A stretch of DNA of 62,756 nt, filler included, from Candidatus Coatesbacteria bacterium (GTDB lineage: Bacteria > JAFGND01), in NCBI GenBank assembly GCA_016927185.1. It is 5 parts of 5 records of this genome, joined end to end, with 100 filler letters (N's around TTAATTAATTAA, not from the genome) between each part and the next. Parts side by side here need not be neighbours in the genome. Positions count along the whole stretch, not along the records: positions 1 to 30,772 come from JAFGND010000001.1; 4 more parts are not named here. One strand, written 5' to 3'. The position numbers were made by a program, and so were the translations under genes. Every line of letters begins with the position of its first letter. Positions within the stretch are counted from its first letter, which is position 1. Positions 2,866-59,567 of this stretch are shown here, in pieces. Under the pieces are notes generated by a model, which was not told the DNA's origin, did not search any database, and saw only the letters and a list, made by a program, of their open reading frames with translations.

Positions 2866-2895
2866 CAGAAAGGGAGGTTAAGCACCTCCCTTCTG
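2866..2895. terminator. bidirectional intrinsic terminator
   Basis: CAGAAAGGGAGGT-taagc-ACCTCCCTTCTG hairpin between convergent genes. Confidence 0.75.
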
Positions 2896-2896
2896 A

Positions 2897-4087
2897 TTAC
2901 TTTAGTTTCACTATTCTTAATGATTCCCTTCCGGATGTTATTATATATACTCCCTCTGACCATTCATCAGTCTTAATCTCGTTTTTCCCTTTCTTGAGAC
3001 TAACTATTAATTGACCAGTAATGGAATAGATAAATCCTTCTTCTGCAACAGATATAGTTACTCTGTTTTTGAATGGAACCGGATAAGCAGCAATCCTGTT
3101 TTGTGGTAATGCCATTCCTGCATTTTCTTCTTTTAAACCCACGGTATCCGACGGATACCAGGCTACTGCTCATATTCGTTGCGTATGACCGGTAAAGGTT
3201 CTCAGGCATGTACCATCTGAAATGCGCCACAATTTTATTGTCTTGTCCCAGCTTGCTGATAATGCATAAGCAGTATCAGGAGAAATGACAACAGGACATA
3301 TGTTATCTGTATGTCCAGTCCATGTTCTGATGCATGTTCCATCTGATATTCTCCAATGCTTTATTGTCCTGTCACTACTTGTAGAAAGTGCTTCCTGTGC
3401 ATTCGGGAAGAAAGTCACAGTCCTTACCCAGTTAGTATGTCCTGTGAAAGTCCTGAGACATGTTCCATCAGATATTCTCCAATACTTCATGGTCTTGTCG
3501 AGACTTCCTGATAATGCATAAATGCCATCATATGAAATATCAACAGTGCCAACCCAGTCAGTATGACCTGTGAAAGTTCTTATGCAAGTGCCATTAGATA
3601 TTTGCCAGTACTTCAAGGTTTTATCTTCACTGCCTGAAAGTACATATTGTTCATCTGGAGACAGCTTTATTGATCTCACTCCATCTGTATGACCTGTAAA
3701 GGTTCTTATGCAAGTACCATCAGACAATCTCCAGTGCTTGATGGTATTGTCGAAAGCACATGACAGAGCATATTCCTCGTTCCTGAAAACCTCGACACCG
3801 TAAATCTGATCCGTATGTCCAGTATATGTTCTCAATACTACTCCGTCATATACCCTCCACATCTTCAATGTATAATCCCAGCTTCCTGTCAGCATCTTGT
3901 AGCCGTCATCTATTATTTTCAAAGCCCTGACATTTTCATCATGACCTTTGTAGGTTTTCAGACAGACTCCATCAGAAATTCTCCATAATTTCATGGTACT
4001 GTCTGCACAACCTGATATGAAATAGACGGGCAATGTAGCTGACAAGAAAGACATTGTGATAATAATCAGTAAAATAATCATTTTCAT
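2897..4087 (-). CDS. secreted 7-bladed WD40 protein with T9SS-like C-terminal domain and an in-frame TGA at 3170-3172
   Basis: Start ATG at 4087 behind AAGGAGG, signal peptide and seven GH...W repeats. ORFs 3170..4183 and 2897..3142 are in the same frame and separated only by one TGA (GHTQRI*AVAWYPSDTVGLKEEN...YPVPF...YSITGQL...GVYII...IVKLK). Confidence 0.85.
3143..3159 (-). promoter_or_regulatory. candidate bacterial SECIS or readthrough hairpin
   Basis: GGUAUCC-GUC-GGAUACC starts 10 nt after the in-frame UGA and has GU at the start of the apical loop. Confidence 0.45.
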
Positions 4088-4287
4088 ATACAATCCTCCT
4101 TTCATGTAAAAATTGCAGCGTGGTATTTCAATGCAATTTATTTTGTCAAGAAAGCTCTTCAAGTAGAAAATAATGCAATCCATAAGTCTTATAAAGATTT
4201 ACAGCGGTTTTCTTTCATTGGCTTGACAATAATGTTGCTATCTAAGAACTTAGCACTGTTGAATTAATGGAAGTAAAGGAGGTAGCG

Positions 4288-4579: not shown

Positions 4580-4601
4580 AAGCCTTCTTTGAAGAAGGCT
4601 T
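4580..4601. terminator. bidirectional intrinsic terminator
   Basis: Perfect AAGCCTTCT-ttga-AGAAGGCTT hairpin between convergent genes. Confidence 0.75.
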
Positions 4602-5446
4602 TAAAAAACCTCCAGTGTTATTCCAAAACCAGTCAGATTTTTTTTCAATGATTCTGTGAAAATGCTTTTGAAATTGCTCTCTGGAACAAGAAACCTTGTT
4701 GAAGAAAGATTACTTGAAATGTATCTGGCAAAAAAACCTGAAAACAAGCCTCCAGTAATATAGAATATTTTATCCTCGGTAATATTTCCAAGAAAGTAAG
4801 ATGGCATTTCATTTTCGCAGACAAGATATTCTGGACTCAAAAGTATCTTGAGATTTGCATTTTTCTCAAGCAGTCTTCTCATCCTTTCATCAGGAATGTC
4901 CTTTATGAAAACATATGCCATTTCACAATCTTCTGTTTTCAGGTGAAGTTTCTGAATAATCTCTTCATTCAATAAGTCTGCTTTCAGGAAAACCGAAGGT
5001 GGATTGGAAATATTTCTGTCTGCGTTCTTTTCAAGATCATTCAAGAAGTCTCCAAGAGATGGACTGCCAAGTTCCAGCATTGTAACAATATTTTCGTAGC
5101 TGATTATTTCCTTGAAACCTATTCCTGTGAAGATGACTGTATTGTCAGGCTTTGTGAAAACAAGAATATGCGTTCTCCCTCTTTCATACAATTCCTGGAC
5201 AAGTGCAGTAAGTATCTCTGCGCCAAGACCTTCGCTTTGATAATCAGGACTTATACCTATGCATTTTATAATATTTCCCTGAAATGAGCCTGTTCCAATT
5301 ATTTCTTCGCACTCTTCCAGCATTATAACTATTGTATATTCAACACTACGTTCATATTTCAAGTTCAACATGCCGAGAAAGGCAGCCACTTGATTTATAC
5401 TGTTTTCGTCAGTTCTGTCAATTATTCTCAAAAAACTTCCGTACAT
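4601..5446 (-). CDS. CitC-like protein (GNAT N-terminal domain of citrate lyase ligase, degenerate C-terminal domain)
   Basis: IIGTGSFQGNIIKCIGISPDYQSEGLG...HILVFTKP matches the CitC N-terminus. The NANPFTxGH motif is not recognisable. Confidence 0.7.
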   Translation of the reverse strand: MYGSFLRIIDRTDENSINQVAAFLGMLNLKYERSVEYTIVIMLEECEEIIGTGSFQGNIIKCIGISPDYQSEGLGAEILTALVQELYERGRTHILVFTKPDNTVIFTGIGFKEIISYENIVTMLELGSPSLGDFLNDLEKNADRNISNPPSVFLKADLLNEEIIQKLHLKTEDCEMAYVFIKDIPDERMRRLLEKNANLKILLSPEYLVCENEMPSYFLGNITEDKIFYITGGLFSGFFARYISSNLSSTRFLVPESNFKSIFTESLKKNLTGFGITLEVF

Positions 5447-5954
5447 TAAATCTCTCTTGAAATTTCATCAAAACAACTTCGGATTTCCTTAAAGGAATGC
5501 TTACCGATTCTTCTGCAAGTTAAATAATCATCTCCGCAAACAATGCAAGTCCTTCCAGTATTTCCAAGATCTTCCCTTGATATCCTATTATGGTTATTAT
5601 CAAATACATCAAGATCAATGATCCTTCCAAATTGCAGATTGTTCTCCCAGTTTATGCAAATTGACTTGAGTTCTGTTGCATCAAGATTGACAGGTACATG
5701 CCATTCCCAGCCATCTTCCTCTTCAACGCAAATAGAGAATTCCCTTTTCAGTTTTTTCCCGGACATCAAGCTGTATAGTTTTTTTTTATGCTGAAAAAAA
5801 CATTTGTAAGATCAGGACTTCTCTTTGGAAGCCCTGGAATATTCATATGCAGGACAAGAAGCGTTGTTTTCGTTTCCGAAATTATTTCCTTCTGAAGATT
5901 TGCTCTCTTGTCTCTTGCTTCAAGTATTTTTTTTATGTGGAATCGCTTATCCAT
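5446..5954 (-). CDS. citX: citrate lyase holo-ACP synthase CitX, frameshifted at an A9 run
   Basis: The N-half (ILEARDKRA...MNIPG) and C-half (LKSICINWE...GRIIDLDV...ISREDLG...RTCIVCG...CRR...H) are in different frames. One extra A in the run at 5779-5787 joins them. Confidence 0.8.
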
Positions 5955-15513: not shown

Positions 15514-17049
15514 CTAACTGCTGATTTTTATCATGCGCTTTGTATAATTCAATGACTTGAATATATAAACTCCTGGTTTCCATGAAGAAGTATCTATATT
15601 GTAGTTACCTGGTTTCAGTATCTTTATTAATTGACCAGTCAATGAATATATTCTTGCAGAATCAGACGATCTGAAATATAACTGCCTGTTGAATGGATTG
15701 GGTGAAATTACAGTTTTCAAGGGAATAGAAGAACTAAAATTCTTTTCCTTGAAACCTACTGTTGAATAGATCGTGAAAAAATTGTCACTTTGTTCTATAG
15801 TGCTTCCTGAAGTGATCTTCATCAGACATGCATCCGAAGGAGTTTGGGGTACTGTCCATAAATGATTCTTCACACCTGTCACATTAGCTATATATATCCA
15901 GCTGTTTCCGGCATCAGTAGTATATTCAATCTTGAAATCATTGTAATTTGCTGATGCATCCCATTTTATTTCCTGTGTGCTTCCTGCTTCCCATATTTCC
16001 CCTCCATTCGGGACAAGCAAATTCAATACTGTTGCATCAAGACAATATATATATTGATCCTTGCTTGAGAAATATACTTTGGAATCATGGCAGAATATTG
16101 ATGAGAAAATTTCTCCAGTTGTCTTGTACTGCCACATTATTTTCCCGTCATGCTTGTTAAGCGCATAAAGGGTTTTCCCGCTGCAGCCAATATATGCATA
16201 ACCATCTGATATACCTGCTGATGAAAGATAAACAGGATAGGATAGATTTGCCTTCCATTTAAGCTGACCTGTAACAGTATCTATTGCATAGAAATAACTA
16301 TCATTACTGCCTATGAAAACAGTGCTGTCGCTTGTTGCGGGAGAGGAATTTATACGATTCTTTGTTTCATATCTCCACCTGAAACCACCATTACTGCTGT
16401 TTAATGCATAAACAAAGCCATCATCGCATCCAAAGTATACTACACTATCATAGATTGTTGCTCCGGAAATTATCCAGTCAGTTGTCAAATACTTCCATTT
16501 CAGCTGCCCATTTGAAGCATTAATTGCATAAATATTTCCGTCCCAGCTTCCATTGTAAACAGTTGAATTATAGCAGACTGGCGAAGAGGTAACATCATAA
16601 TCTGTTTCATATTCCCAGATCTGATTTCCGGTTTCCACGTCAACTGCGTAAATTGAATTGTCAGCACTCCCGAAATAGACTATTCCATTGCTTACAGCTG
16701 GTGTTGATCTTATGGCATCTCTCGTTGGGTATGCCCATATAGGTGAACCTGTTGATGCATTCATTGCGTACATATTCCTGTCAAAACTTCCTATGAAGAG
16801 AATTCCATTATCTACTATGCATCCAGCATGTATCATTCCATCAGTTTCATAACTCCAGATAAGGGAACCTGTAAGTGCATTCAAGGCATAGATTTTATGA
16901 TCACCGCTTCCGACATAAAGCACACCATCAACAACATATGGAGTTCCATAATTGAAGTTCCCGGTTTTGTAGCTCCATATTAAATCACCTGACGCTGATT
17001 GCAGGCAGGTTGAAAATAACAACAGAAAAATCAATAACATTATTCTCAT
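15514..17049 (-). CDS. secreted PQQ-like/BamB beta-propeller repeat protein with T9SS-like C-terminal domain
   Basis: Signal peptide, repeated YxGSxD..YALNA.TG..W.Y, a PNGGEIW Ig-like module and C-terminal SPNPF...YSLTGQL...W.PGVYI...IK. Confidence 0.88.
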   Translation of the reverse strand: MRIMLLIFLLLFSTCLQSASGDLIWSYKTGNFNYGTPYVVDGVLYVGSGDHKIYALNALTGSLIWSYETDGMIHAGCIVDNGILFIGSFDRNMYAMNASTGSPIWAYPTRDAIRSTPAVSNGIVYFGSADNSIYAVDVETGNQIWEYETDYDVTSSPVCYNSTVYNGSWDGNIYAINASNGQLKWKYLTTDWIISGATIYDSVVYFGCDDGFVYALNSSNGGFRWRYETKNRINSSPATSDSTVFIGSNDSYFYAIDTVTGQLKWKANLSYPVYLSSAGISDGYAYIGCSGKTLYALNKHDGKIMWQYKTTGEIFSSIFCHDSKVYFSSKDQYIYCLDATVLNLLVPNGGEIWEAGSTQEIKWDASANYNDFKIEYTTDAGNSWIYIANVTGVKNHLWTVPQTPSDACLMKITSGSTIEQSDNFFTIYSTVGFKEKNFSSSIPLKTVISPNPFNRQLYFRSSDSARIYSLTGQLIKILKPGNYNIDTSSWKPGVYIFKSLNYTKRMIKISS

Positions 17050-17191
17050 ATTCTCGCTCCTTTCTATTTGCATTTAATAATTATTTGAAGTAAAAAAAGT
17101 CAAGCATAATCTGCAAAATTATCTTTAAAAAGTAAAAAACATCAATATTTTGACTTGCTTTTAAAATGCATATTTCTGTGTCTGCCTTTAT

Positions 17192-29273: not shown

Positions 29274-30647
29274 TTAATTAATCTTTATTATCCTCTTGCA
29301 TTCCTTCCCACTCTTCACAATATAAACTCCCTCTCTCCATTTGCTTGTATCAAGAGAATGCTTGCCTTTGGAGAGGTTCATTATAAACTGACCAGTCAGG
29401 GAATATACTGCTCCTGAGGAAGGAAGAGAAACTGACAAGTGGGTTGAGAATGGGTTGGGGGAGATGGAGAGGGAGGGGGTGGGAAGGGATTTAGTAGAAA
29501 CATAAGAAGAGAATCCAGTTTCACCGTCTTTATCAGTTTTAACAAGATAAATATCGAAGTCCAAGCCATGAGTTTCTGTATACCGATCACCTGCAATATA
29601 ATAACCATCGCTTGTCACTATTATGTGTACTCCTCTTTCAGCAGAATTATCTTCACCATAAGTTCTACTCCAGATCTTATTACCTGCATTGTCTGTTTTC
29701 AACAAATACAAAAAACCCTCACGTGAGGATTTACTCCAATCCCAGCCTGTTACTATATAGTCATTGTTTTCGTCCTGTTTAACACAGATTCCAACTGTAG
29801 TATCATTCTCCTTAAATGTCTTTTCCCATTCCTTGATACCATCTGCATTTGTTTTGAGAAGGCATAGTTCGTTTTCATAATCACCTGTGATAATGAAACC
29901 TCCATCATTTGTTATTTCTACGCATTCCCCAATGTCATTACCTGTATCACCAAACATTTTTTCCCATACTATATTTCCTTCACTATCTATCTTCATTAAA
30001 AAGACTTTTGTTGTATCTTCTTGATTATTTCTCGTACTTCCTGCTGTAATAAATCCTCCATCATTCAGTTTCGAAATAGATGAAAGACTAGAATGTCCCA
30101 ATCCTGAATTTGCATATTGCTTTTCCCAGATTATGTTACCTGTACTGTCAGTTCTCAGTAGATAAATATCATGACTTTCAGATTTGTTGAAAGTACTTCC
30201 TATTATTATTATATCACCATTATCTGCTTCTACCAAGGAGATGCCATAATTGTAATCGTTAGAACCATATACCTTACTCCATAATTCATTATATTCCTTA
30301 TCTACTTTCATCAAATATACTTGTCCAAAAGCGTTTCTATATTTAATTGTTCCAACAATAATTAGAGAACCATCAGTTGTATTTATCATATTAAAGGATC
30401 TTATTGTATCAAGCTTGTTGAAATCCTTCTTAAATAAAATACTTCCACTCTTGTCAATCCTGAACAAGCTAATATCAATATTGTCAATTTCGCTCCGTTC
30501 TTGCATTATTTCACATATTGTGAAATTCCCATCTTTATCTTTTATAATCCCAGGATTTTCTTCATTATAGATAGTATCCCCATAATACTTCTCCCAGCCA
30601 AGAAGTAAAGATGGTAAGAGAAATGATAAAAGCAATAGAACTTTCAT
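29274..30647 (-). CDS. secreted beta-propeller repeat protein with T9SS-like C-terminal domain
   Basis: Signal peptide, repeats DGGFIITG...YLLKTD..G...W.K.YG and C-terminal SPNPFS...YSLTGQ...WREGVYIVK...IIKIN. Start ATG 30647 behind AAGGAGG. Confidence 0.85.
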   Translation of the reverse strand: MKVLLLLSFLLPSLLLGWEKYYGDTIYNEENPGIIKDKDGNFTICEIMQERSEIDNIDISLFRIDKSGSILFKKDFNKLDTIRSFNMINTTDGSLIIVGTIKYRNAFGQVYLMKVDKEYNELWSKVYGSNDYNYGISLVEADNGDIIIIGSTFNKSESHDIYLLRTDSTGNIIWEKQYANSGLGHSSLSSISKLNDGGFITAGSTRNNQEDTTKVFLMKIDSEGNIVWEKMFGDTGNDIGECVEITNDGGFIITGDYENELCLLKTNADGIKEWEKTFKENDTTVGICVKQDENNDYIVTGWDWSKSSREGFLYLLKTDNAGNKIWSRTYGEDNSAERGVHIIVTSDGYYIAGDRYTETHGLDFDIYLVKTDKDGETGFSSYVSTKSLPTPSLSISPNPFSTHLSVSLPSSGAVYSLTGQFIMNLSKGKHSLDTSKWREGVYIVKSGKECKRIIKIN

Positions 30648-30772
30648 ATTAACCTCCTTGAATTTATTCCTTATTTTTGGCAATACTTTTATAAAATCTA
30701 TACCCAATAACATTCTGGTAGATTTTATATTATCTTTCTTTGTAAATCTCCATATAGTCAAAAAAAAAAAAA

Positions 30773-30872
30773 NNNNNNNNNNNNNNNNNNNNNNNNNNNN
30801 NNNNNNNNNNNNNNNNTTAATTAATTAANNNNNNNNNNNNNNNNNNNNNNNNNNNNNNNNNNNNNNNNNNNN
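30773..30872. other. artificial contig linker
   Basis: N44-TTAATTAATTAA-N44, a stop-codon linker. Confidence 0.98.
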
Positions 30873-32944: not shown

Positions 32945-34849
32945 TCATTCAGACAAAGCTATAACTTTATCTTCATCCTTTACTATGAATTTCTCATCTT
33001 TGTTCAAATTAATACGTATATTATTCTCTTTCCGAGTATTCTGGATAATACCGAGGGCTACATCTCCCCTTCTCTTTGCTGAAGCTATTAATTCCGCAAA
33101 AGTTGCGGTCTTATTTATTGGAAGATAATATGAAACAGGTTTTAGATAAATCTCATAACCTTCTGGATTGAATAATTCCCGGAAAATTTGATTAATACTC
33201 CTGTTCTCACTTATTTGTGAAAAAATCATTGAAATCAGTTTATTACTTACTATAAAATCATTTATTGCGGATATTGTAGCTAATTCCTTGTTTTTTATTG
33301 AAAGAATCTCTGATGAAATATTTACTTCAGATCTTCTTTCAGGATATTGCTGCATGATCTCCCTTAATATCAATAATACTATCAATGTTTTTGCATCAGA
33401 AGATTCAAGATTGTCATATAAAAGCTGATCACTCAATATAATAATGCTGGTAAACGAAATAGGATCAATATTAAGTAATTCCTTTTTTCTAATTGGTGAA
33501 CCTTTCTTGTATTCTATATTCAGATTATTCAGATCTCCTACTACTTCTTTTATATATTTATTTGCAAATTCCTCCTCTTGCTCACTAAATATCAAGCAGC
33601 TTGAACCTTTAGATACATATTGATCCAGCTGCTGCAAGATAAATGCTATCTCCCTTGACCAGTTAACAAGTAGAAACCTTTCAGGAATATGAGCATCATC
33701 TACTGATAGTTTTGATTCATCGGGAAGAACGGGTGGAGATTTATATGAAATCTTCAAAGGATAATCATCTTCCATCATTATTATAATCCTGTCATCTCCA
33801 CGTATTATTTCTTCATCAGGAGGATTTAGCTTATGTTTACCGTTTCTCACTAATCCTATCAATGTTCCATTATCTATAGCGAACATGGCGCTGTAGTAAG
33901 TTTTGCCTGATAGTTCTTTAGGTACATCAACAAAATAAAACTCACTTCCCTCGAAAGAAAGCAGGTGCTCATATATTAAAGATAAACCAGATTGCCTTGC
34001 TGTCTGGACAACAATCCGGGAAATGATACCACATGAAAAAACTATTTCCACTTCCTTTCCAAGAGTTTCAAAAAGCTGTATATTCTCTTCATTCTGAACT
34101 TCTACTATAATTTGAAATGGTTCAGTTCTCCTATTTGGATGATTCAAAATAGCCATAATCACTTTGAGATTTCTTGTATCGCTATCCAGAGCAGATCTGT
34201 TACTTTCTTCATCTCCTATAATCAATATTGCCTTAGTTTCATTGAAATTAACCATCTCCAAACTAGCTAAATCTATAGGATCTCCTGACCTGAATATTAC
34301 CTTTGTAGTCTTGAAGTCATCAATTTTGAGTTTCACAGCATCTTCCATTGTCTCCTTGTCTTCATCTGCAAGAATAACTATTTTGGCAGAAGCCTGGTTT
34401 TCGTTAGCTCTTATCAGTTCCTCAACAATAGTGAATATCTTGTTATTCCATCCAATAATTAATGTATGATTACTTTCTATTACAAAAGTTTTCCCCTTCT
34501 TTAATTCAGAAATCCTGCTCTCAATCTGGCTTGTCAAAAGACCTATCAACAGACTCATTAACAGAATTCCTAAAAGAGTTATGAAAAAGACAACAAAAAG
34601 AAATCCAAGAGGTGGATTTTCATGAGAAGCTATTGCACCAGGATCAATCAAATGAGTGAATGCATACCATATTGCCCTTGATGCACTACCATTGACTTTT
34701 GCATCTGCCAATATTCTTATCCCAACTGCTCCAAACAAGATTATTATTACAGACAGAACAACAAGTCCAATTATTTGTGAATATGGATTTCTAGAAAAAA
34801 AGTCATCCAGGTAATAAGAGACTCTTTCCTTGAGTGTTATTTTTTTCAT
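32945..34849 (-). CDS. CASTOR/POLLUX-related ion channel
   Basis: W..FTHLIDPG pore region, LKKGKT.VIE.NHTLIIGWN, two RCK-like domains and G.EIYLKP. Confidence 0.85.
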   Translation of the reverse strand: MKKITLKERVSYYLDDFFSRNPYSQIIGLVVLSVIIILFGAVGIRILADAKVNGSASRAIWYAFTHLIDPGAIASHENPPLGFLFVVFFITLLGILLMSLLIGLLTSQIESRISELKKGKTFVIESNHTLIIGWNNKIFTIVEELIRANENQASAKIVILADEDKETMEDAVKLKIDDFKTTKVIFRSGDPIDLASLEMVNFNETKAILIIGDEESNRSALDSDTRNLKVIMAILNHPNRRTEPFQIIVEVQNEENIQLFETLGKEVEIVFSCGIISRIVVQTARQSGLSLIYEHLLSFEGSEFYFVDVPKELSGKTYYSAMFAIDNGTLIGLVRNGKHKLNPPDEEIIRGDDRIIIMMEDDYPLKISYKSPPVLPDESKLSVDDAHIPERFLLVNWSREIAFILQQLDQYVSKGSSCLIFSEQEEEFANKYIKEVVGDLNNLNIEYKKGSPIRKKELLNIDPISFTSIIILSDQLLYDNLESSDAKTLIVLLILREIMQQYPERRSEVNISSEILSIKNKELATISAINDFIVSNKLISMIFSQISENRSINQIFRELFNPEGYEIYLKPVSYYLPINKTATFAELIASAKRRGDVALGIIQNTRKENNIRINLNKDEKFIVKDEDKVIALSE

Positions 34850-35157
34850 TTCTTCCTCTCAATATTCTTTTTCCTTGAATCTCTCCACCACTTCAAATAT
34901 GCACATTTTGATGGTAAATATCTCTTGGATTTTACCTGGGAAAGCTTCAATTTCTTGCATTCTGGATTTATTTCAAATCTATTTTTATAAATTTTACATA
35001 ACATACTTTCCATATCCAGGTATTGACATGGAATATCCGTGAAAATAAGCCTTCCATTACTGTCATAATACTTTTCAAAACAGCAAGATCCGCATTTTAA
35101 GCAGATAGCCTCCCATTCCTTAGTAGTTATCTTATCAAGTTTTATTGATTTTGCCAA
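34846..35157 (-). CDS. YkgJ/YcgN-family cysteine cluster protein
   Basis: WEAICLKCGSCC...PCQYLD....CKIY..RF...PEC...LP..CAY. Confidence 0.85.
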   Translation of the reverse strand: MAKSIKLDKITTKEWEAICLKCGSCCFEKYYDSNGRLIFTDIPCQYLDMESMLCKIYKNRFEINPECKKLKLSQVKSKRYLPSKCAYLKWWRDSRKKNIERKK

Positions 35158-40981: not shown

Positions 40982-42265
40982 TTATTTTAATTTTATTATT
41001 CTTCTATTTTCAGAAGCTGATTTAATAATATAAACTCCCTCTCTCCATTTGCTTGTATCAATAGAGTGCTTGCCTTTATCTAATTTCATAATTAGCTGAC
41101 CAGTCAGGGAATAGATGGTACCTGAAGAAGGCAGAGAAACTACCAAGCGAGTTGAGAAGGGGTTAGGGGAAATAGAGAAGGATTTTGATGGAAGCCTTGT
41201 TGCTGATTTAGTTTGCTTGAAACCATCTTTATAAGTTTCAATTGCATATAAATAATAATCATAACTTCCGCAATATACTTTTCCCTTGGATGCATATGGA
41301 GAAGATCTAACTGCTTTTTCTGTCTGATATTTCCATTTAAGGCTTCCATCCTCAGTGTTTAATGCATAAATCTTACAATCAAGACTTCCAATATATAGAA
41401 TTCCATCAGTTACAAAAGGTGAAGAATATGAAATTGCTCCATCTGTTAAGTATTTCCATTTTAGAAATCCATCTGAAGCATTTAATGCATAGATATAATT
41501 ATCTTCACTTCCAATATAAACTACATTGTCAACTACTAAAGGAGAAGAAGTAATATAGTTGTCTGTCTTGTATTGCCATTTCAAGCTTCCATCTGATGAA
41601 TTAATAGCATTTACGGAATGATTGTCATAAGTGCCAAAATAAACTACTCCATCTTTAATATAAGGTTTAGTAATAACAAAACCAGATGCCTGATATTTCC
41701 ATTTTGAACTACCATTAGAAGCATTTAATGCATATAGAAACCAATCCCAGCTACCAAAATATACTATTCCTTCTGAAATAGAAGGTGATTCAACATTATT
41801 TTTTGCTCCAAATCTCCAGATTAGCTTGCCATTTGTAATGTCAATAGCATAAAGATATCCATGATCTTGTTCATCTATATCACATCCAACGTAAACTAGT
41901 CCCTTTGAAACACAAGGTGATGAGCTTATTGAACTATTAGTTGCAAATTTCCATTTTAATGATCCATCTGAATTATTTATTGCATATAAATAACTATCCT
42001 TGCTTCCTATATAAGTTACTCCTCCTTCAATAAAAGGCGTAGAATAAACATCCTTACCAGTTTTATATTTCCATTTTAAAGATCCGTCATTAATATACAA
42101 AGAATATACATATGTGTCACAACTACCTATATATAATGCATCTTCATATAAACATGGAGATGAAAAAACCGCATTAGCTGTCCTATATCTCCATAATAGA
42201 TCTCCGGGTTCTGAAAAAAGAATAGAGATTAATAAACAGAGAGAAACAAAGATACTAACTTTCAA
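40982..42265 (-). CDS. secreted PQQ-like beta-propeller repeat protein with T9SS-like C-terminal domain
   Basis: TTG start behind AAGGAGG, signal peptide, repeats SSP...VYIGS.D..YALN..DGSLKWKY and C-terminal SPNPFS...WREGVYII. Confidence 0.88.
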   Translation of the reverse strand: MKVSIFVSLCLLISILFSEPGDLLWRYRTANAVFSSPCLYEDALYIGSCDTYVYSLYINDGSLKWKYKTGKDVYSTPFIEGGVTYIGSKDSYLYAINNSDGSLKWKFATNSSISSSPCVSKGLVYVGCDIDEQDHGYLYAIDITNGKLIWRFGAKNNVESPSISEGIVYFGSWDWFLYALNASNGSSKWKYQASGFVITKPYIKDGVVYFGTYDNHSVNAINSSDGSLKWQYKTDNYITSSPLVVDNVVYIGSEDNYIYALNASDGFLKWKYLTDGAISYSSPFVTDGILYIGSLDCKIYALNTEDGSLKWKYQTEKAVRSSPYASKGKVYCGSYDYYLYAIETYKDGFKQTKSATRLPSKSFSISPNPFSTRLVVSLPSSGTIYSLTGQLIMKLDKGKHSIDTSKWREGVYIIKSASENRRIIKLK

Positions 42266-48409: not shown

Positions 48410-48509
48410 NNNNNNNNNNNNNNNNNNNNNNNNNNNNNNNNNNNNNNNNNNNNTTAATTAATTAANNNNNNNNNNNNNNNNNNNNNNNNNNNNNNNNNNN
48501 NNNNNNNNN
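48410..48509. other. artificial contig linker
   Basis: N44-TTAATTAATTAA-N44. Confidence 0.98.
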
Positions 48510-49778: not shown

Positions 49779-50795
49779 TCATGGATAGATAAGCATTCCA
49801 TCACCATAAGAATAAAATCTATACCTTTTTTCAATAGCCTCCTTATAAGCTGAAAGAACTCTTGCATATCCTCCAAATGAACAAACTAACATCAGGAGAG
49901 AGGATTTAGGGAGATGAAAATTAGTAATGAGACCTGATACTATCTTGAAATTAAAACCGGGCTTTATGAATAAATCAGTTTCTCCAGAAAGCTTCTTCTT
50001 ATTTAGCATCCATGTTTCCAGAGCTCTTACAGTTGTTGTTCCTACGGAAATGACTTTTTTCCTGTTCATAAGCGCAAAATCTAATTCAATAGCAGCTTCT
50101 TCGGGGATTTCAAAATACTCAGAATGAAGTGAGTTCTTTTTGAAAGTCTCTTCAGTTAAAGGCTTGAAAGTCCCTAAACCTACATGCAAGATTATTTCAA
50201 CTATCTTTATCCCTTTGTTCTTGATCCTCTCAATAAGGTCACTATCAAAATGCAATCCAGCTGTTGGTGAAGCAACAGAACCTTCAACCTTGGCAAATAT
50301 CGTTTGATAATCAGATCTATCTTCTATTTCGTCTTTTCTTCTAATATATGGTGGTAATGGAACATGTCCAATGCTATTCATTATTTCATATCCATTAACA
50401 TTGAATCTAATCAATATTCCATCTTCTGTAAATGAAATAACTTCACCATATATTTCATCAGTAAACAATATTTTGGAATTCAGCTTGATTTTCCTTCTTG
50501 GTTTAGCTAATGCTTCAAATGTAAAATCATCAAATCTTGAACAGGCTGGAAGCAGCAGGAATTCAAATCCCCTACCCTCTACATCTTCTCCGAAGAGCCT
50601 TGCCAATAAGACTTTAGTCTTGTTGATAACCATAACTGAATCTTCCAGAAGAAATTCGGGAAGATCATTAAAATGATTGTGTCCTGTTTTTTCTGCCAAT
50701 ATCATCAATCTAGCATTATCTCTTGGATATAAAGGTTTGAAGGCAATCAACTCTTCAGGCAAGTTATAATCAAAGTCTTCCAATTCAAATTTCAT
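49779..50795 (-). CDS. queA: S-adenosylmethionine:tRNA ribosyltransferase-isomerase
   Basis: DFDYNLPEELIA, PLPPYI, GSVASPTAGLHF, LHVGLGTF, VGTTTVRALE, TNFHLPKS and YSYGD. Confidence 0.96.
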   Translation of the reverse strand: MKFELEDFDYNLPEELIAFKPLYPRDNARLMILAEKTGHNHFNDLPEFLLEDSVMVINKTKVLLARLFGEDVEGRGFEFLLLPACSRFDDFTFEALAKPRRKIKLNSKILFTDEIYGEVISFTEDGILIRFNVNGYEIMNSIGHVPLPPYIRRKDEIEDRSDYQTIFAKVEGSVASPTAGLHFDSDLIERIKNKGIKIVEIILHVGLGTFKPLTEETFKKNSLHSEYFEIPEEAAIELDFALMNRKKVISVGTTTVRALETWMLNKKKLSGETDLFIKPGFNFKIVSGLITNFHLPKSSLLMLVCSFGGYARVLSAYKEAIEKRYRFYSYGDGMLIYP

Positions 50796-50963
50796 GCATG
50801 TTTGAAGCAAATTCCTTAAATATATAGTCAAGTTATAAACCATGAGATTATTATAAGACTGAAAATCCAAGGAACAGGTTTTTAAAAATCTTTTAGGCTT
50901 TTACTTGACGAAATAATGCCCAAAAGGCGACCTGTTATAAGAATATCCTAACAAGGAGTATAT

Positions 50964-56464: not shown

Positions 56465-56564
56465 NNNNNNNNNNNNNNNNNNNNNNNNNNNNNNNNNNNN
56501 NNNNNNNNTTAATTAATTAANNNNNNNNNNNNNNNNNNNNNNNNNNNNNNNNNNNNNNNNNNNN
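56465..56564. other. artificial contig linker
   Basis: N44-TTAATTAATTAA-N44. Confidence 0.98.
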
Positions 56565-58789: not shown

Positions 58790-59467
58790 TTCTCATATCA
58801 AAATGACTTATGCACGTCCGAACGGTTGAGTTGTTGTGCTCGATTTATGCGCCTGTGAAAAGTTGTTATAAGTGAGGATTGATAAAAAATGTTTTGCGGA
58901 ATAGATGTGTCTAAAGGAAAATCTAACGTGTGCATATTAGGCCAGGACAAAAAAGTAAAATCAGAATTCGAAATAAAACATGACAAGCAAGGATTTGAAA
59001 AGCTAGAAAAACACCTAACAAAAGAAACAATCATAGGCATGGAAACAACAGGGAACTACTGCAAGATAATCTACAGATACTTAAAAGAAAGATATGAAAA
59101 CGTAAACTACGTAGACAATCTCCAAATGAAAAACTTTGCAAGTGTCTATTCCCCGACAATAAAGAACGACAGAGTAGATGCAAGACTTATAGCAGCATTC
59201 CTATCTCAAGACTTTAAAAGAGTAAATCCTTTGAAAGTGGATGAACTAAAAGATCTATCTAAACTGTATCAAAAAACACTGAAACAAATGACCAGATACA
59301 AATACATGTTCAAGGATCAGATCAACATAATCTTTCCAGAACTAGACAAACTCATAGGAATGGGATATATCAAAGGAATATCTTACTTATTACTAAAACA
59401 TCCTTCTCCTGAAGAAATCGCTAAGTTATCTGTTGAAGAGATAAAAAAAGCTTTCACTGAAAATCTA
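58790..59467 (+). mobile_element. IS110-family element, partial (non-coding left end plus transposase CDS 58889 to >59467)
   Basis: MFCGIDVSK...IGMETTGNY...KNDRVDARLIA (DEDD RuvC-like domain). Truncated by the contig end, and the left boundary is approximate. Confidence 0.88.
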
Positions 59468-59567
59468 NNNNNNNNNNNNNNNNNNNNNNNNNNNNNNNNN
59501 NNNNNNNNNNNTTAATTAATTAANNNNNNNNNNNNNNNNNNNNNNNNNNNNNNNNNNNNNNNNNNNN
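59468..59567. other. artificial contig linker
   Basis: N44-TTAATTAATTAA-N44. Confidence 0.98.

Follow-up and report, generated by a model that had tools for sequence, protein, structure and literature searches.

An in-frame TGA and a SECIS-like hairpin in the gene of a predicted secreted WD40 propeller of Candidatus Coatesbacteria: a candidate for a new selenoprotein family

Introduction

Does a TGA codon within a bacterial gene for a secreted WD40 propeller protein specify an amino acid, or does it mark a damaged gene or an error in the record? This question is raised by a minus-strand locus of a Candidatus Coatesbacteria bacterium (NCBI GenBank assembly GCA_016927185.1), contained in the 62,756-nucleotide stretch of DNA analyzed here, hereafter the window. 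A preliminary description of the locus had proposed that the TGA is read as selenocysteine (Sec) under the direction of a hairpin resembling a selenocysteine insertion sequence (SECIS), or else that the hairpin stimulates readthrough that toggles attachment of the secretion signal. The results discussed below make it plausible, without proving it, that this WD40 gene represents a new selenoprotein family, one that would rely on a known mechanism.

Results

A single TGA interrupts an otherwise open reading frame

The landmarks of the open reading frame (ORF), together with the residues found at two of its positions in the related proteins P0003 and P0155 (see below), are as follows.

2897..4087, minus strand: read-through ORF of 396 codons, encoding a putative signal peptide, a seven-blade WD40 propeller, a linker and a type IX secretion system (T9SS) C-terminal domain, and ending in TAA 2899-2897
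4095..4100, minus strand: Shine-Dalgarno-like motif AGGAGG, 7 nt 5' of ATG 4087, read from the sequence
3170..3172, minus strand: in-frame TGA, codon 306 by the ORF reading, the candidate Sec codon; the ortholog P0003 has Cys at this column
3296..3298, minus strand: TGT codon of Cys264, in the column of the previous blade that corresponds to the TGA, where it is the second residue of the innermost strand; kept in P0003 and P0155

The preliminary description had noted a single TGA at codon 306, and we find that TGA 3172-3170 is indeed the sole interruption of the minus-strand frame between ATG 4087 and TAA 2899-2897: the 90 codons that follow it remain open, with no further stop or frameshift. 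Conventional translation (table 11) therefore gives a product of 305 codons, as compared to about 396-404 residues in homologs. The N-terminus (MKMIILL...) aligns with those of the homologs, which start at equivalent MK... residues. Recognizable protein flanks the TGA on both sides, with WD40 repeats lying 5' of it and the 28th strand of the propeller plus a Por_Secre_tail domain lying 3'. The previous repeat reads GHTDNIC, and its TGT (3298-3296), situated exactly 126 nt 5' of the TGA, accounts for the Cys that had been reported at the same column of that repeat.

The residues after the TGA complete the propeller and supply a sorting domain

Read through the TGA, the protein divides into four segments.

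4025..4087, minus strand: hydrophobic signal-peptide-like segment, residues 1-21 (from the sequence, a model helix at residues 2-14 and the homolog alignment)
3152..4024, minus strand: seven-blade WD40 propeller, residues 22-312, 28 strands (Pfam WD40, AlphaFold2 and Foldseek)
3101..3151, minus strand: low-confidence linker, residues 313-329 (predicted local distance difference test, pLDDT, below 50 for residues 315-329)
2900..3100, minus strand: T9SS type A C-terminal sorting domain, residues about 330-396 (PF18962 and TIGR04183; beta-sandwich strands at 333-394)

The Pfam WD40 model matched seven stretches of the ORF (E = 5.9e-66). The structure was modeled with AlphaFold2 from an input alignment of 20 sequences, the TGA being taken as Sec and entered as Cys. 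In the resulting model (mean pLDDT 90.3), 28 strands within residues 22-310 form seven four-stranded blades, and the best Foldseek match, Protein Data Bank (PDB) entry 7bid, superimposed with a target-normalized TM-score of 0.97 and a root-mean-square deviation (rmsd) of 1.2 over 292 columns. By Pfam, AlphaFold2 and Foldseek alike, the protein displays the arrangement that typifies a seven-blade WD40 propeller, in which the N- and C-terminal strands share one blade. Strand 28 (residues 305-310) begins at the TGA column, and beyond it the model places a disordered linker (315-329) followed by a beta-sandwich (333-394). The 90 residues downstream of the TGA, when scored alone, exceeded the curated cut-offs of both PF18962 (Por_Secre_tail; 29.3 bits, cut-off 27) and TIGR04183 (24.2 bits, cut-off 23), while the whole protein scored 20.7 bits against TIGR04183, below the cut-off of 23. 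These results agree with the earlier statement that the residues after the TGA close blade 7 and provide the sorting domain. As strand 28 begins where the TGA lies, termination there would leave the closing blade one strand short and the protein without any of its export signal.

The same kind of sorting domain is carried by three other proteins of the window. All three are secreted beta-propeller proteins encoded on the minus strand (15514-17073, 29274-30761 and 40982-42265), two of them PQQ/BamB-like and one SBBP-like, and their sorting domains are nearly identical, being of the type ...SPNPFS..IYSLTGQ..KGKHS.DTSKWREGVYI.K... This domain type is also found on many unrelated proteins of uncultured bacteria labeled Candidatus Coatesbacteria, and to judge from these sequences it is a lineage-specific sorting tag. 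No genes for the T9SS machinery were seen within the 62.7-kb window.

A hairpin with the properties of a bacterial SECIS follows the TGA

The element proposed to direct Sec insertion has the following extent.

3136..3164, minus strand: candidate bacterial SECIS, with a 5-bp lower stem, a 2-nt 3' bulge, a 7-bp perfect upper stem at 3159-3143 and a GUC loop

The perfect hairpin that had been described ten nt past the TGA, GGTATCC-GTC-GGATACC, is present at 3159-3143; it starts 10 nt after the TGA and its loop starts 17 nt after. The minimum-energy fold extends the upper stem by the 5-bp lower stem and the 2-nt bulge, so that the structure spans 3164-3136. For comparison, the minimal element of E. 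coli fdhF is reportedly a 17-nt stem-loop located 11 nt after the UGA.

Scoring relied on our own, bulge-free implementation of the published constraints for bacterial SECIS (bSECIS) elements. The consensus of Zhang and Gladyshev, as summarized in the legend to Fig. 2 of PMC13188914, comprises an apical loop of 3-9 nt closed by an upper stem of 4-16 bp, a G at one of the two leading loop positions with, in most cases, G or U after it, a UGA-to-loop distance of 16-37 nt, and a minimum free energy (MFE) of -7.5 kcal/mol or lower. With its 3-nt GUC loop, stem of 7-8 bp, spacing of 17 nt and energy of -9.1 kcal/mol, the candidate lies within all four constraints. Such hairpins are rare: among the 2,899 TGA triplets on both strands of the window, 15 satisfy the bSECIS constraints, and an equally good or better hairpin is present at nine, the candidate included, meaning that a SECIS-type hairpin of such quality is expected at about 0.3-0.5% of TGAs. 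When the downstream codons were resampled synonymously, a perfect stem of at least 7 bp arose in the first 40 nt in 24 of 5,000 trials, and an equal or lower MFE in 102 of 5,000. The 42 nt after the TGA fold with -13.4 kcal/mol (z = -2.77), a value equalled by none of 200 shuffles; the equivalent 42-nt stretches of the six other repeats give -9.8, -7.9, -4.9, -0.9, -4.9 and -5.1 kcal/mol.

The stem is built from codons that are scarce in the 46 window ORFs, where CCG, TCG and ACC make up 5.8%, 3.4% and 13.5% of the codons for Pro, Ser and Thr, respectively; the preliminary description had pointed to the GC-rich CCG and TCG codons of the hairpin in an AT-rich genome. Distinct perfect hairpins of at least 7 bp with at least four G/C pairs number seven in the window, four of which lie within ORFs. 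Rfam returned no match at the hairpin site. A role as an intrinsic terminator was ruled out, as the hairpin has no U tract and the terminator scan returned no terminator-like sites.

Close relatives and the residue at the TGA column

Querying with the last 142 residues of the read-through protein turned up three proteins among 51 candidates, including P0003, a 235-residue partial protein that is the closest full ortholog. At the position in question P0003 reads GHTQRI-C-ALTW, as compared to GHTQRI-TGA-AVAW in the window, and the Cys one blade earlier is likewise present in it. When the last 106 residues were used in an exhaustive, profile-free search, 1,020 proteins were returned at E <=0.001; among them is a WD40 family, about 396-404 residues long, whose sorting domain is of the same kind and several members of which are labeled Candidatus Coatesbacteria. 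The true ortholog group is smaller than this wider family, and consists of the window protein, P0006, P0003 and P0155.

P0155 is 69% identical to the window protein over its N-terminal part, and its record is frameshifted. A degenerate decoding of its out-of-frame tail fits window residues 241-320, permitting nothing but Cys at position 264 and a stop, C, F, L, S or Y at position 306; should residue 307 be Ala, the residue found in both relatives, the choice at 306 is reduced to C, F, S or Y. Since P0003 has Cys at both columns, and P0155 has Cys264 together with a position 306 that is compatible with Cys, the narrow ortholog group, as far as its sequences can be read, retains two Cys residues, one in blade 6 and one at the matching position in blade 7, with the window's TGA at the second of these. 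As for the P0155 record itself (JGI, 384 residues), the frameshift follows ...STSSDH, and the Arg/Pro-rich tail is what the final two WD40 repeats give when translated in the next frame. The gene is GC-rich, and the tail reflects either an assembly error or a second damaged copy of the window gene in another organism.

A contig of 1,775 nt from another assembly encodes P0006, an ORF of 72 residues that shares 85% identity with the sorting domain and whose initial Met corresponds to an internal ATG of the window gene. Had the upstream frame been open, a gene caller would not have placed the start at this Met, suggesting that P0006 is likely interrupted as well, and hence that the interruption is probably common to the window gene and a diverged relative. 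No N-terminal piece of a relative ending at the same stop was present among proteins of lengths 167-534, a range that excludes any shorter partial piece from the 1,775-nt contig of P0006; the best match was P0155. The window's own 81-residue downstream ORF (P0265) is recorded on two contigs. A genome scan yielded 606 matching stretches, of which 596 were confirmed as relatives. The best 80 correspond to 78 loci, all of them generic WD40 genes, mostly cyanobacterial, with at most 43% identity, and the junction with the sorting domain was absent from these 78 loci by tblastn with the last 101 or 90 residues (best E 0.079 and 0.25, respectively).

TGA acts as a stop codon elsewhere in the window

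The open frame alone could also be accommodated if TGA were a sense codon throughout the genome, as it is under genetic codes 4 and 25, an explanation to which we attach practically no weight. Stop usage in the 47 non-overlapping ORFs of at least 90 residues was 27 TAA, 13 TAG and 7 TGA, so that six of these ORFs end in TGA besides the gene studied here. Two of the TGA-ended proteins reach close to the ends of their family profiles: by the time its TGA is reached, QueA (49779-50870) has covered its profile up to position 343 of 346, and a YcgN-family protein (34846-35157) matches to position 99 of 104. Long frames bounded by TAA or TAG and divided by TGA, with two pieces of at least 60 codons, number 15. 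Only two of these contain a single TGA, namely the WD40 gene and a frame antisense to a thiF-like gene, and the 15 frames include no second candidate selenoprotein gene within the window. As TGA is an ordinary stop elsewhere in the window, we regard an alternative genetic code as excluded.

Weighing the explanations

Sec decoding of the TGA at codon 306 is consistent with what was observed of the ORF and its protein (layout, propeller fold, sorting domain and an ortholog with Cys) and with a hairpin that is both rare and within the bSECIS constraints. The stem-loop, beginning 5-10 nt past the UGA, would recruit SelB carrying Sec-tRNA(Sec), and translation would then proceed through the last propeller strand, the linker and the T9SS sorting domain. 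The predicted product is a 396-residue protein, which would be exported through the Sec translocon and then by the type IX system. Sec306 and Cys264 would occupy the same position of the innermost strands of neighboring blades, an arrangement that could form a selenylsulfide or a metal-binding pair. The insertion of Sec itself, the presence of SelA, SelB, SelC and SelD, and the geometry and any chemistry of the Cys/Sec pair are inferences. With the evidence on both sides considered, the sequence data leave Sec decoding about evenly balanced between true and false, although the TGA resembles a Sec codon more than it does an ordinary stop. Of the preliminary proposal, the parts that stood are those concerning a Cys ortholog, the fit of the hairpin to the bSECIS constraints, its rarity and a structurally required 3' domain; what did not favor it is that distant homologs have residues other than Cys at the column.

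A number of observations weigh against Sec decoding. At the TGA column, the 19 aligned homologs comprise one with Cys (P0003), 15 with Y, Q, T, R, N, K or G, two with a gap and one out of frame (P0155), such that 15 of the 16 readable homologs are non-Cys. The comparison of homologs that the preliminary description had called for is thus split, with Cys in P0003 and R, Q, T, N, K, Y or G in the distant homologs. A single substitution converts TGT or TGC to TGA. The hairpin is small, consisting of a triloop and a 7-bp stem; one template-switch mutation could have made the palindrome. Its signal appears only with the 42 nt after the TGA, the 81-nt context around it giving a z of only -1.16. Moreover, the 42 nt after the Cys264 codon of the previous repeat (3254-3295, minus strand) also fold unusually well (-9.8 kcal/mol, z = -2.84, 1 of 200 shuffles), indicating that WD40 repeat-coding sequence can give hairpins by chance; the loop of that fold has no G in its first place. 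Neither selA, selB nor selD was found among the 46 window ORFs scanned, and no tRNA-Sec was found in the window, for which ARAGORN and Rfam gave only tRNA-Gly, although a lack of Sec genes in 62.7 kb of a draft genome says little. Candidatus Coatesbacteria receives no mention in the portion of the BSepDB list of Sec users that was searched; in the same portion the neighboring phyla are well represented, with 151 mentions for Cloacimonadota, 97 for Marinisomatota and 86 for Fibrobacterota. The low prior for a new selenoprotein family, the single genome, doubt over whether the host uses Sec and the non-conserved column all count in the same direction.

The downstream domain offers little to offset these points. 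Of the 11 differences between the window and P0006, four fall within the 32 conserved columns of the 72 compared (permutation p = 0.11, hypergeometric 0.40, not significant); the differences do not avoid conserved columns, and there is no sign of purifying selection downstream of the TGA. The window protein and P0006 both read PVPF at a site where 39 of 39 family members, and likewise the three other sorting domains of the window, read PNPF. Of the 32 conserved columns, 23 agree with the family consensus in the window's sorting domain; the corresponding counts in the 39 others range from 15 to 32, with five at 23 or fewer, which is neither clear decay nor clear constraint.

Several of these observations fit the view that the gene is a pseudogene, in which a Cys codon (TGT or TGC) mutated to TGA and translation stops at codon 305, an account that we consider possible but somewhat doubtful. 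The product would lack one propeller strand and the sorting signal and would itself be lost; the absence of decay in the downstream ORF would reflect no more than its shortness and youth; and the hairpin would be a coincidence or the product of a template switch. One substitution is enough, given an ortholog with Cys at the column; intact orthologs have no such interruption; the family, a large one with many paralogs, evolves rapidly; and P0155, which is the nearest ortholog on the N-terminal side, has a frameshift in its own record. Cys is evidently not needed at this column in most readable homologs, the sorting domain departs from invariant family positions, the differences from P0006 are spread as neutrality predicts, and no Sec machinery was seen in the window. 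Such a history nevertheless leaves it to chance that a SECIS-type hairpin, formed of rare codons, stands at the right spacing, as happens at only 9 to 15 of the 2,899 TGA triplets, and that the mutation struck a Cys codon, an event to which we assign, by our own estimate from codon frequencies, about one in fifteen random nonsense mutations to TGA. It must also contend with 90 downstream codons free of further lesions, with a split seemingly common to P0006 despite differences at 11 of 72 residues, and with a consensus match that falls within the range of the 39 other sequences.

A sequencing or assembly error in this draft metagenome-assembled genome would turn the gene into one for an ordinary Cys-containing secreted WD40 protein, the true codon being TGT or TGC. 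A single base would then explain everything, the ortholog has Cys, and the window is made of joined draft contigs; set against this are the recording of the 81-residue downstream ORF on two contigs, the same truncated start in the diverged relative P0006, and a rare-codon hairpin that would be left unexplained, and we consider such an error very unlikely. We are only slightly less skeptical of programmed readthrough independent of Sec, in which a near-cognate tRNA, aided by the hairpin, would read the UGA at low frequency, leaving the bulk of the product truncated and only a minority with the secretion signal. A stable hairpin shortly 3' of the stop and a downstream sequence that looks like a functional domain are compatible with it. 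Since the truncated form lacks the strand that completes blade seven, however, a useful short isoform is unlikely, and the Cys of P0003 points to a Cys-like residue. We know of no programmed UGA readthrough of such a kind in bacteria outside the Sec system. The earlier suggestion that readthrough toggles the secretion signal accordingly found no specific support. Independent translation of the 81- or 72-residue downstream ORF was rejected on reasoning, as a sorting domain with neither signal peptide nor cargo has no evident use.

Other features of the window

The WD40 gene faces a convergent pair of plus-strand genes, which encode a B12-binding radical SAM protein (233-1627) and a second radical SAM protein (1706-2863). 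The latter displayed weak SPASM/twitch-type matches, with all family scores far below the curated cut-offs. Between the convergent genes lies a further palindrome.

2870..2892, no strand assigned: 9-bp perfect palindromic hairpin, a likely two-way terminator, between the convergent WD40 and radical SAM genes

This palindrome was not flagged by the simple terminator scan. Upstream of the WD40 gene, 4601-5769 (minus strand) contains ORFs that are CitC-like (citrate lyase ligase) and CitX-like (holo-ACP synthase, ACP being acyl carrier protein), both of which are shorter than their families and score below the family cut-offs. The 107-residue CitX-like ORF overlaps the 62-residue ORF upstream of it (5766-5954), and the two may represent a split gene.

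The window is not a continuous piece of chromosome: five or more draft contigs have been strung together in it, with linkers that carry stops in all six frames and that appear at 30773-30872, 48410-48509, 56465-56564 and 59468-59567 as four blocks of 44 N, TTAATTAATTAA and a further 44 N. The WD40 gene is on the first contig (1-30772), at the very start of which (1-23) is a perfect 10-bp GC-rich palindrome (CCCCTCTCCT...AGGAGAGGGG). At 58889-59515 (plus strand), an N-terminal fragment of an IS110-family transposase (208 residues, profile positions 1-169 of 343) runs into a contig join.

Discussion

The mechanism proposed here is the standard bacterial one, involving SelB, tRNA-Sec and an intragenic SECIS, and any novelty would reside in the host protein. 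Like bacterial genes with an intragenic SECIS of the E. coli fdhF type, the WD40 gene combines an in-frame UGA with a stem-loop inside the ORF whose small loop has a G followed by a U; the spacing of 17 nt falls within 16-37 nt, the energy of -9.1 kcal/mol is below -7.5 kcal/mol, and a Cys ortholog exists. In contrast to those genes, the host here is a WD40 scaffold rather than a redox enzyme, Cys is not conserved in the wider family, and the loop measures only 3 nt.

A precedent for Sec in outer-membrane proteins is provided by the TonB-dependent receptor selenoprotein family listed in PMC13188914. That family resembles the WD40 candidate in placing Sec outside the cytoplasm, at the outer membrane of Gram-negative bacteria. 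It differs in its fold, in having a CxxU motif within one stretch of sequence, and in having no T9SS sorting domain; the putative partner Cys of the WD40 candidate is 42 residues away, on a neighboring blade.

Among proteins of the same architecture, the secreted WD40 family with T9SS domains (P0009, P0017, P0114, P0157 and others) shares with the window protein its length of about 396-404 residues, its putative signal peptide and its type of sorting domain, but is only 32-44% identical to it and has neither a stop nor a Cys at the column. WDR5 and the designer protein v31WRAP-T (PDB 7bid) share its fold, as reflected in the close superposition on 7bid described above; unlike them, the window protein is bacterial and predicted to be secreted, and it carries a T9SS sorting domain and a Cys/TGA pair in blades 6 and 7. 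In WDR5-type propellers the residue after GHxxx[VI] presumably lines the central channel.

New selenoprotein families are reported regularly: BSepDB holds 111 selenoprotein families and subfamilies (PMC13326102), and deep-Sep added nine new families from 20 genomes (PMC12013277). The mechanism considered here would therefore not be new. The terms 'WD40' and 'propeller' were absent from the searched portions of the main texts on BSepDB (PMC13326102) and deep-Sep (PMC12013277) and of PMC13188914, and the portion of the BSepDB supplement that was searched had no WD40, propeller or T9SS entry. More broadly, we found no WD40, propeller or T9SS selenoprotein in the open-access literature searched, in agreement with the preliminary statement that no WD40 selenoprotein had been described.

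If the WD40 gene instead proves to be a pseudogene, the finding is an ordinary one. If Sec is inserted, the protein would be the first WD40-propeller selenoprotein and the first that is cargo of a type IX system, with Sec306 and Cys264 disposed around the central channel and with selenium gating the synthesis of a foldable, exportable product, a combined proposal in which our confidence falls a little short of even. With the strand that closes the propeller and the sorting signal both encoded beyond the UGA, the availability of selenium would determine whether such a product is made at all. The gene would then represent a new bacterial selenoprotein family outside the usual redox-enzyme folds, a natural case in which the redox or metal partner of Sec comes from a neighboring repeat rather than from a CxxU motif, and an extension of the range of small (triloop) bacterial SECIS elements. 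It would also mean that, in a candidate lineage about which little is known, selenium is carried by a binding scaffold that is secreted or displayed at the cell surface.

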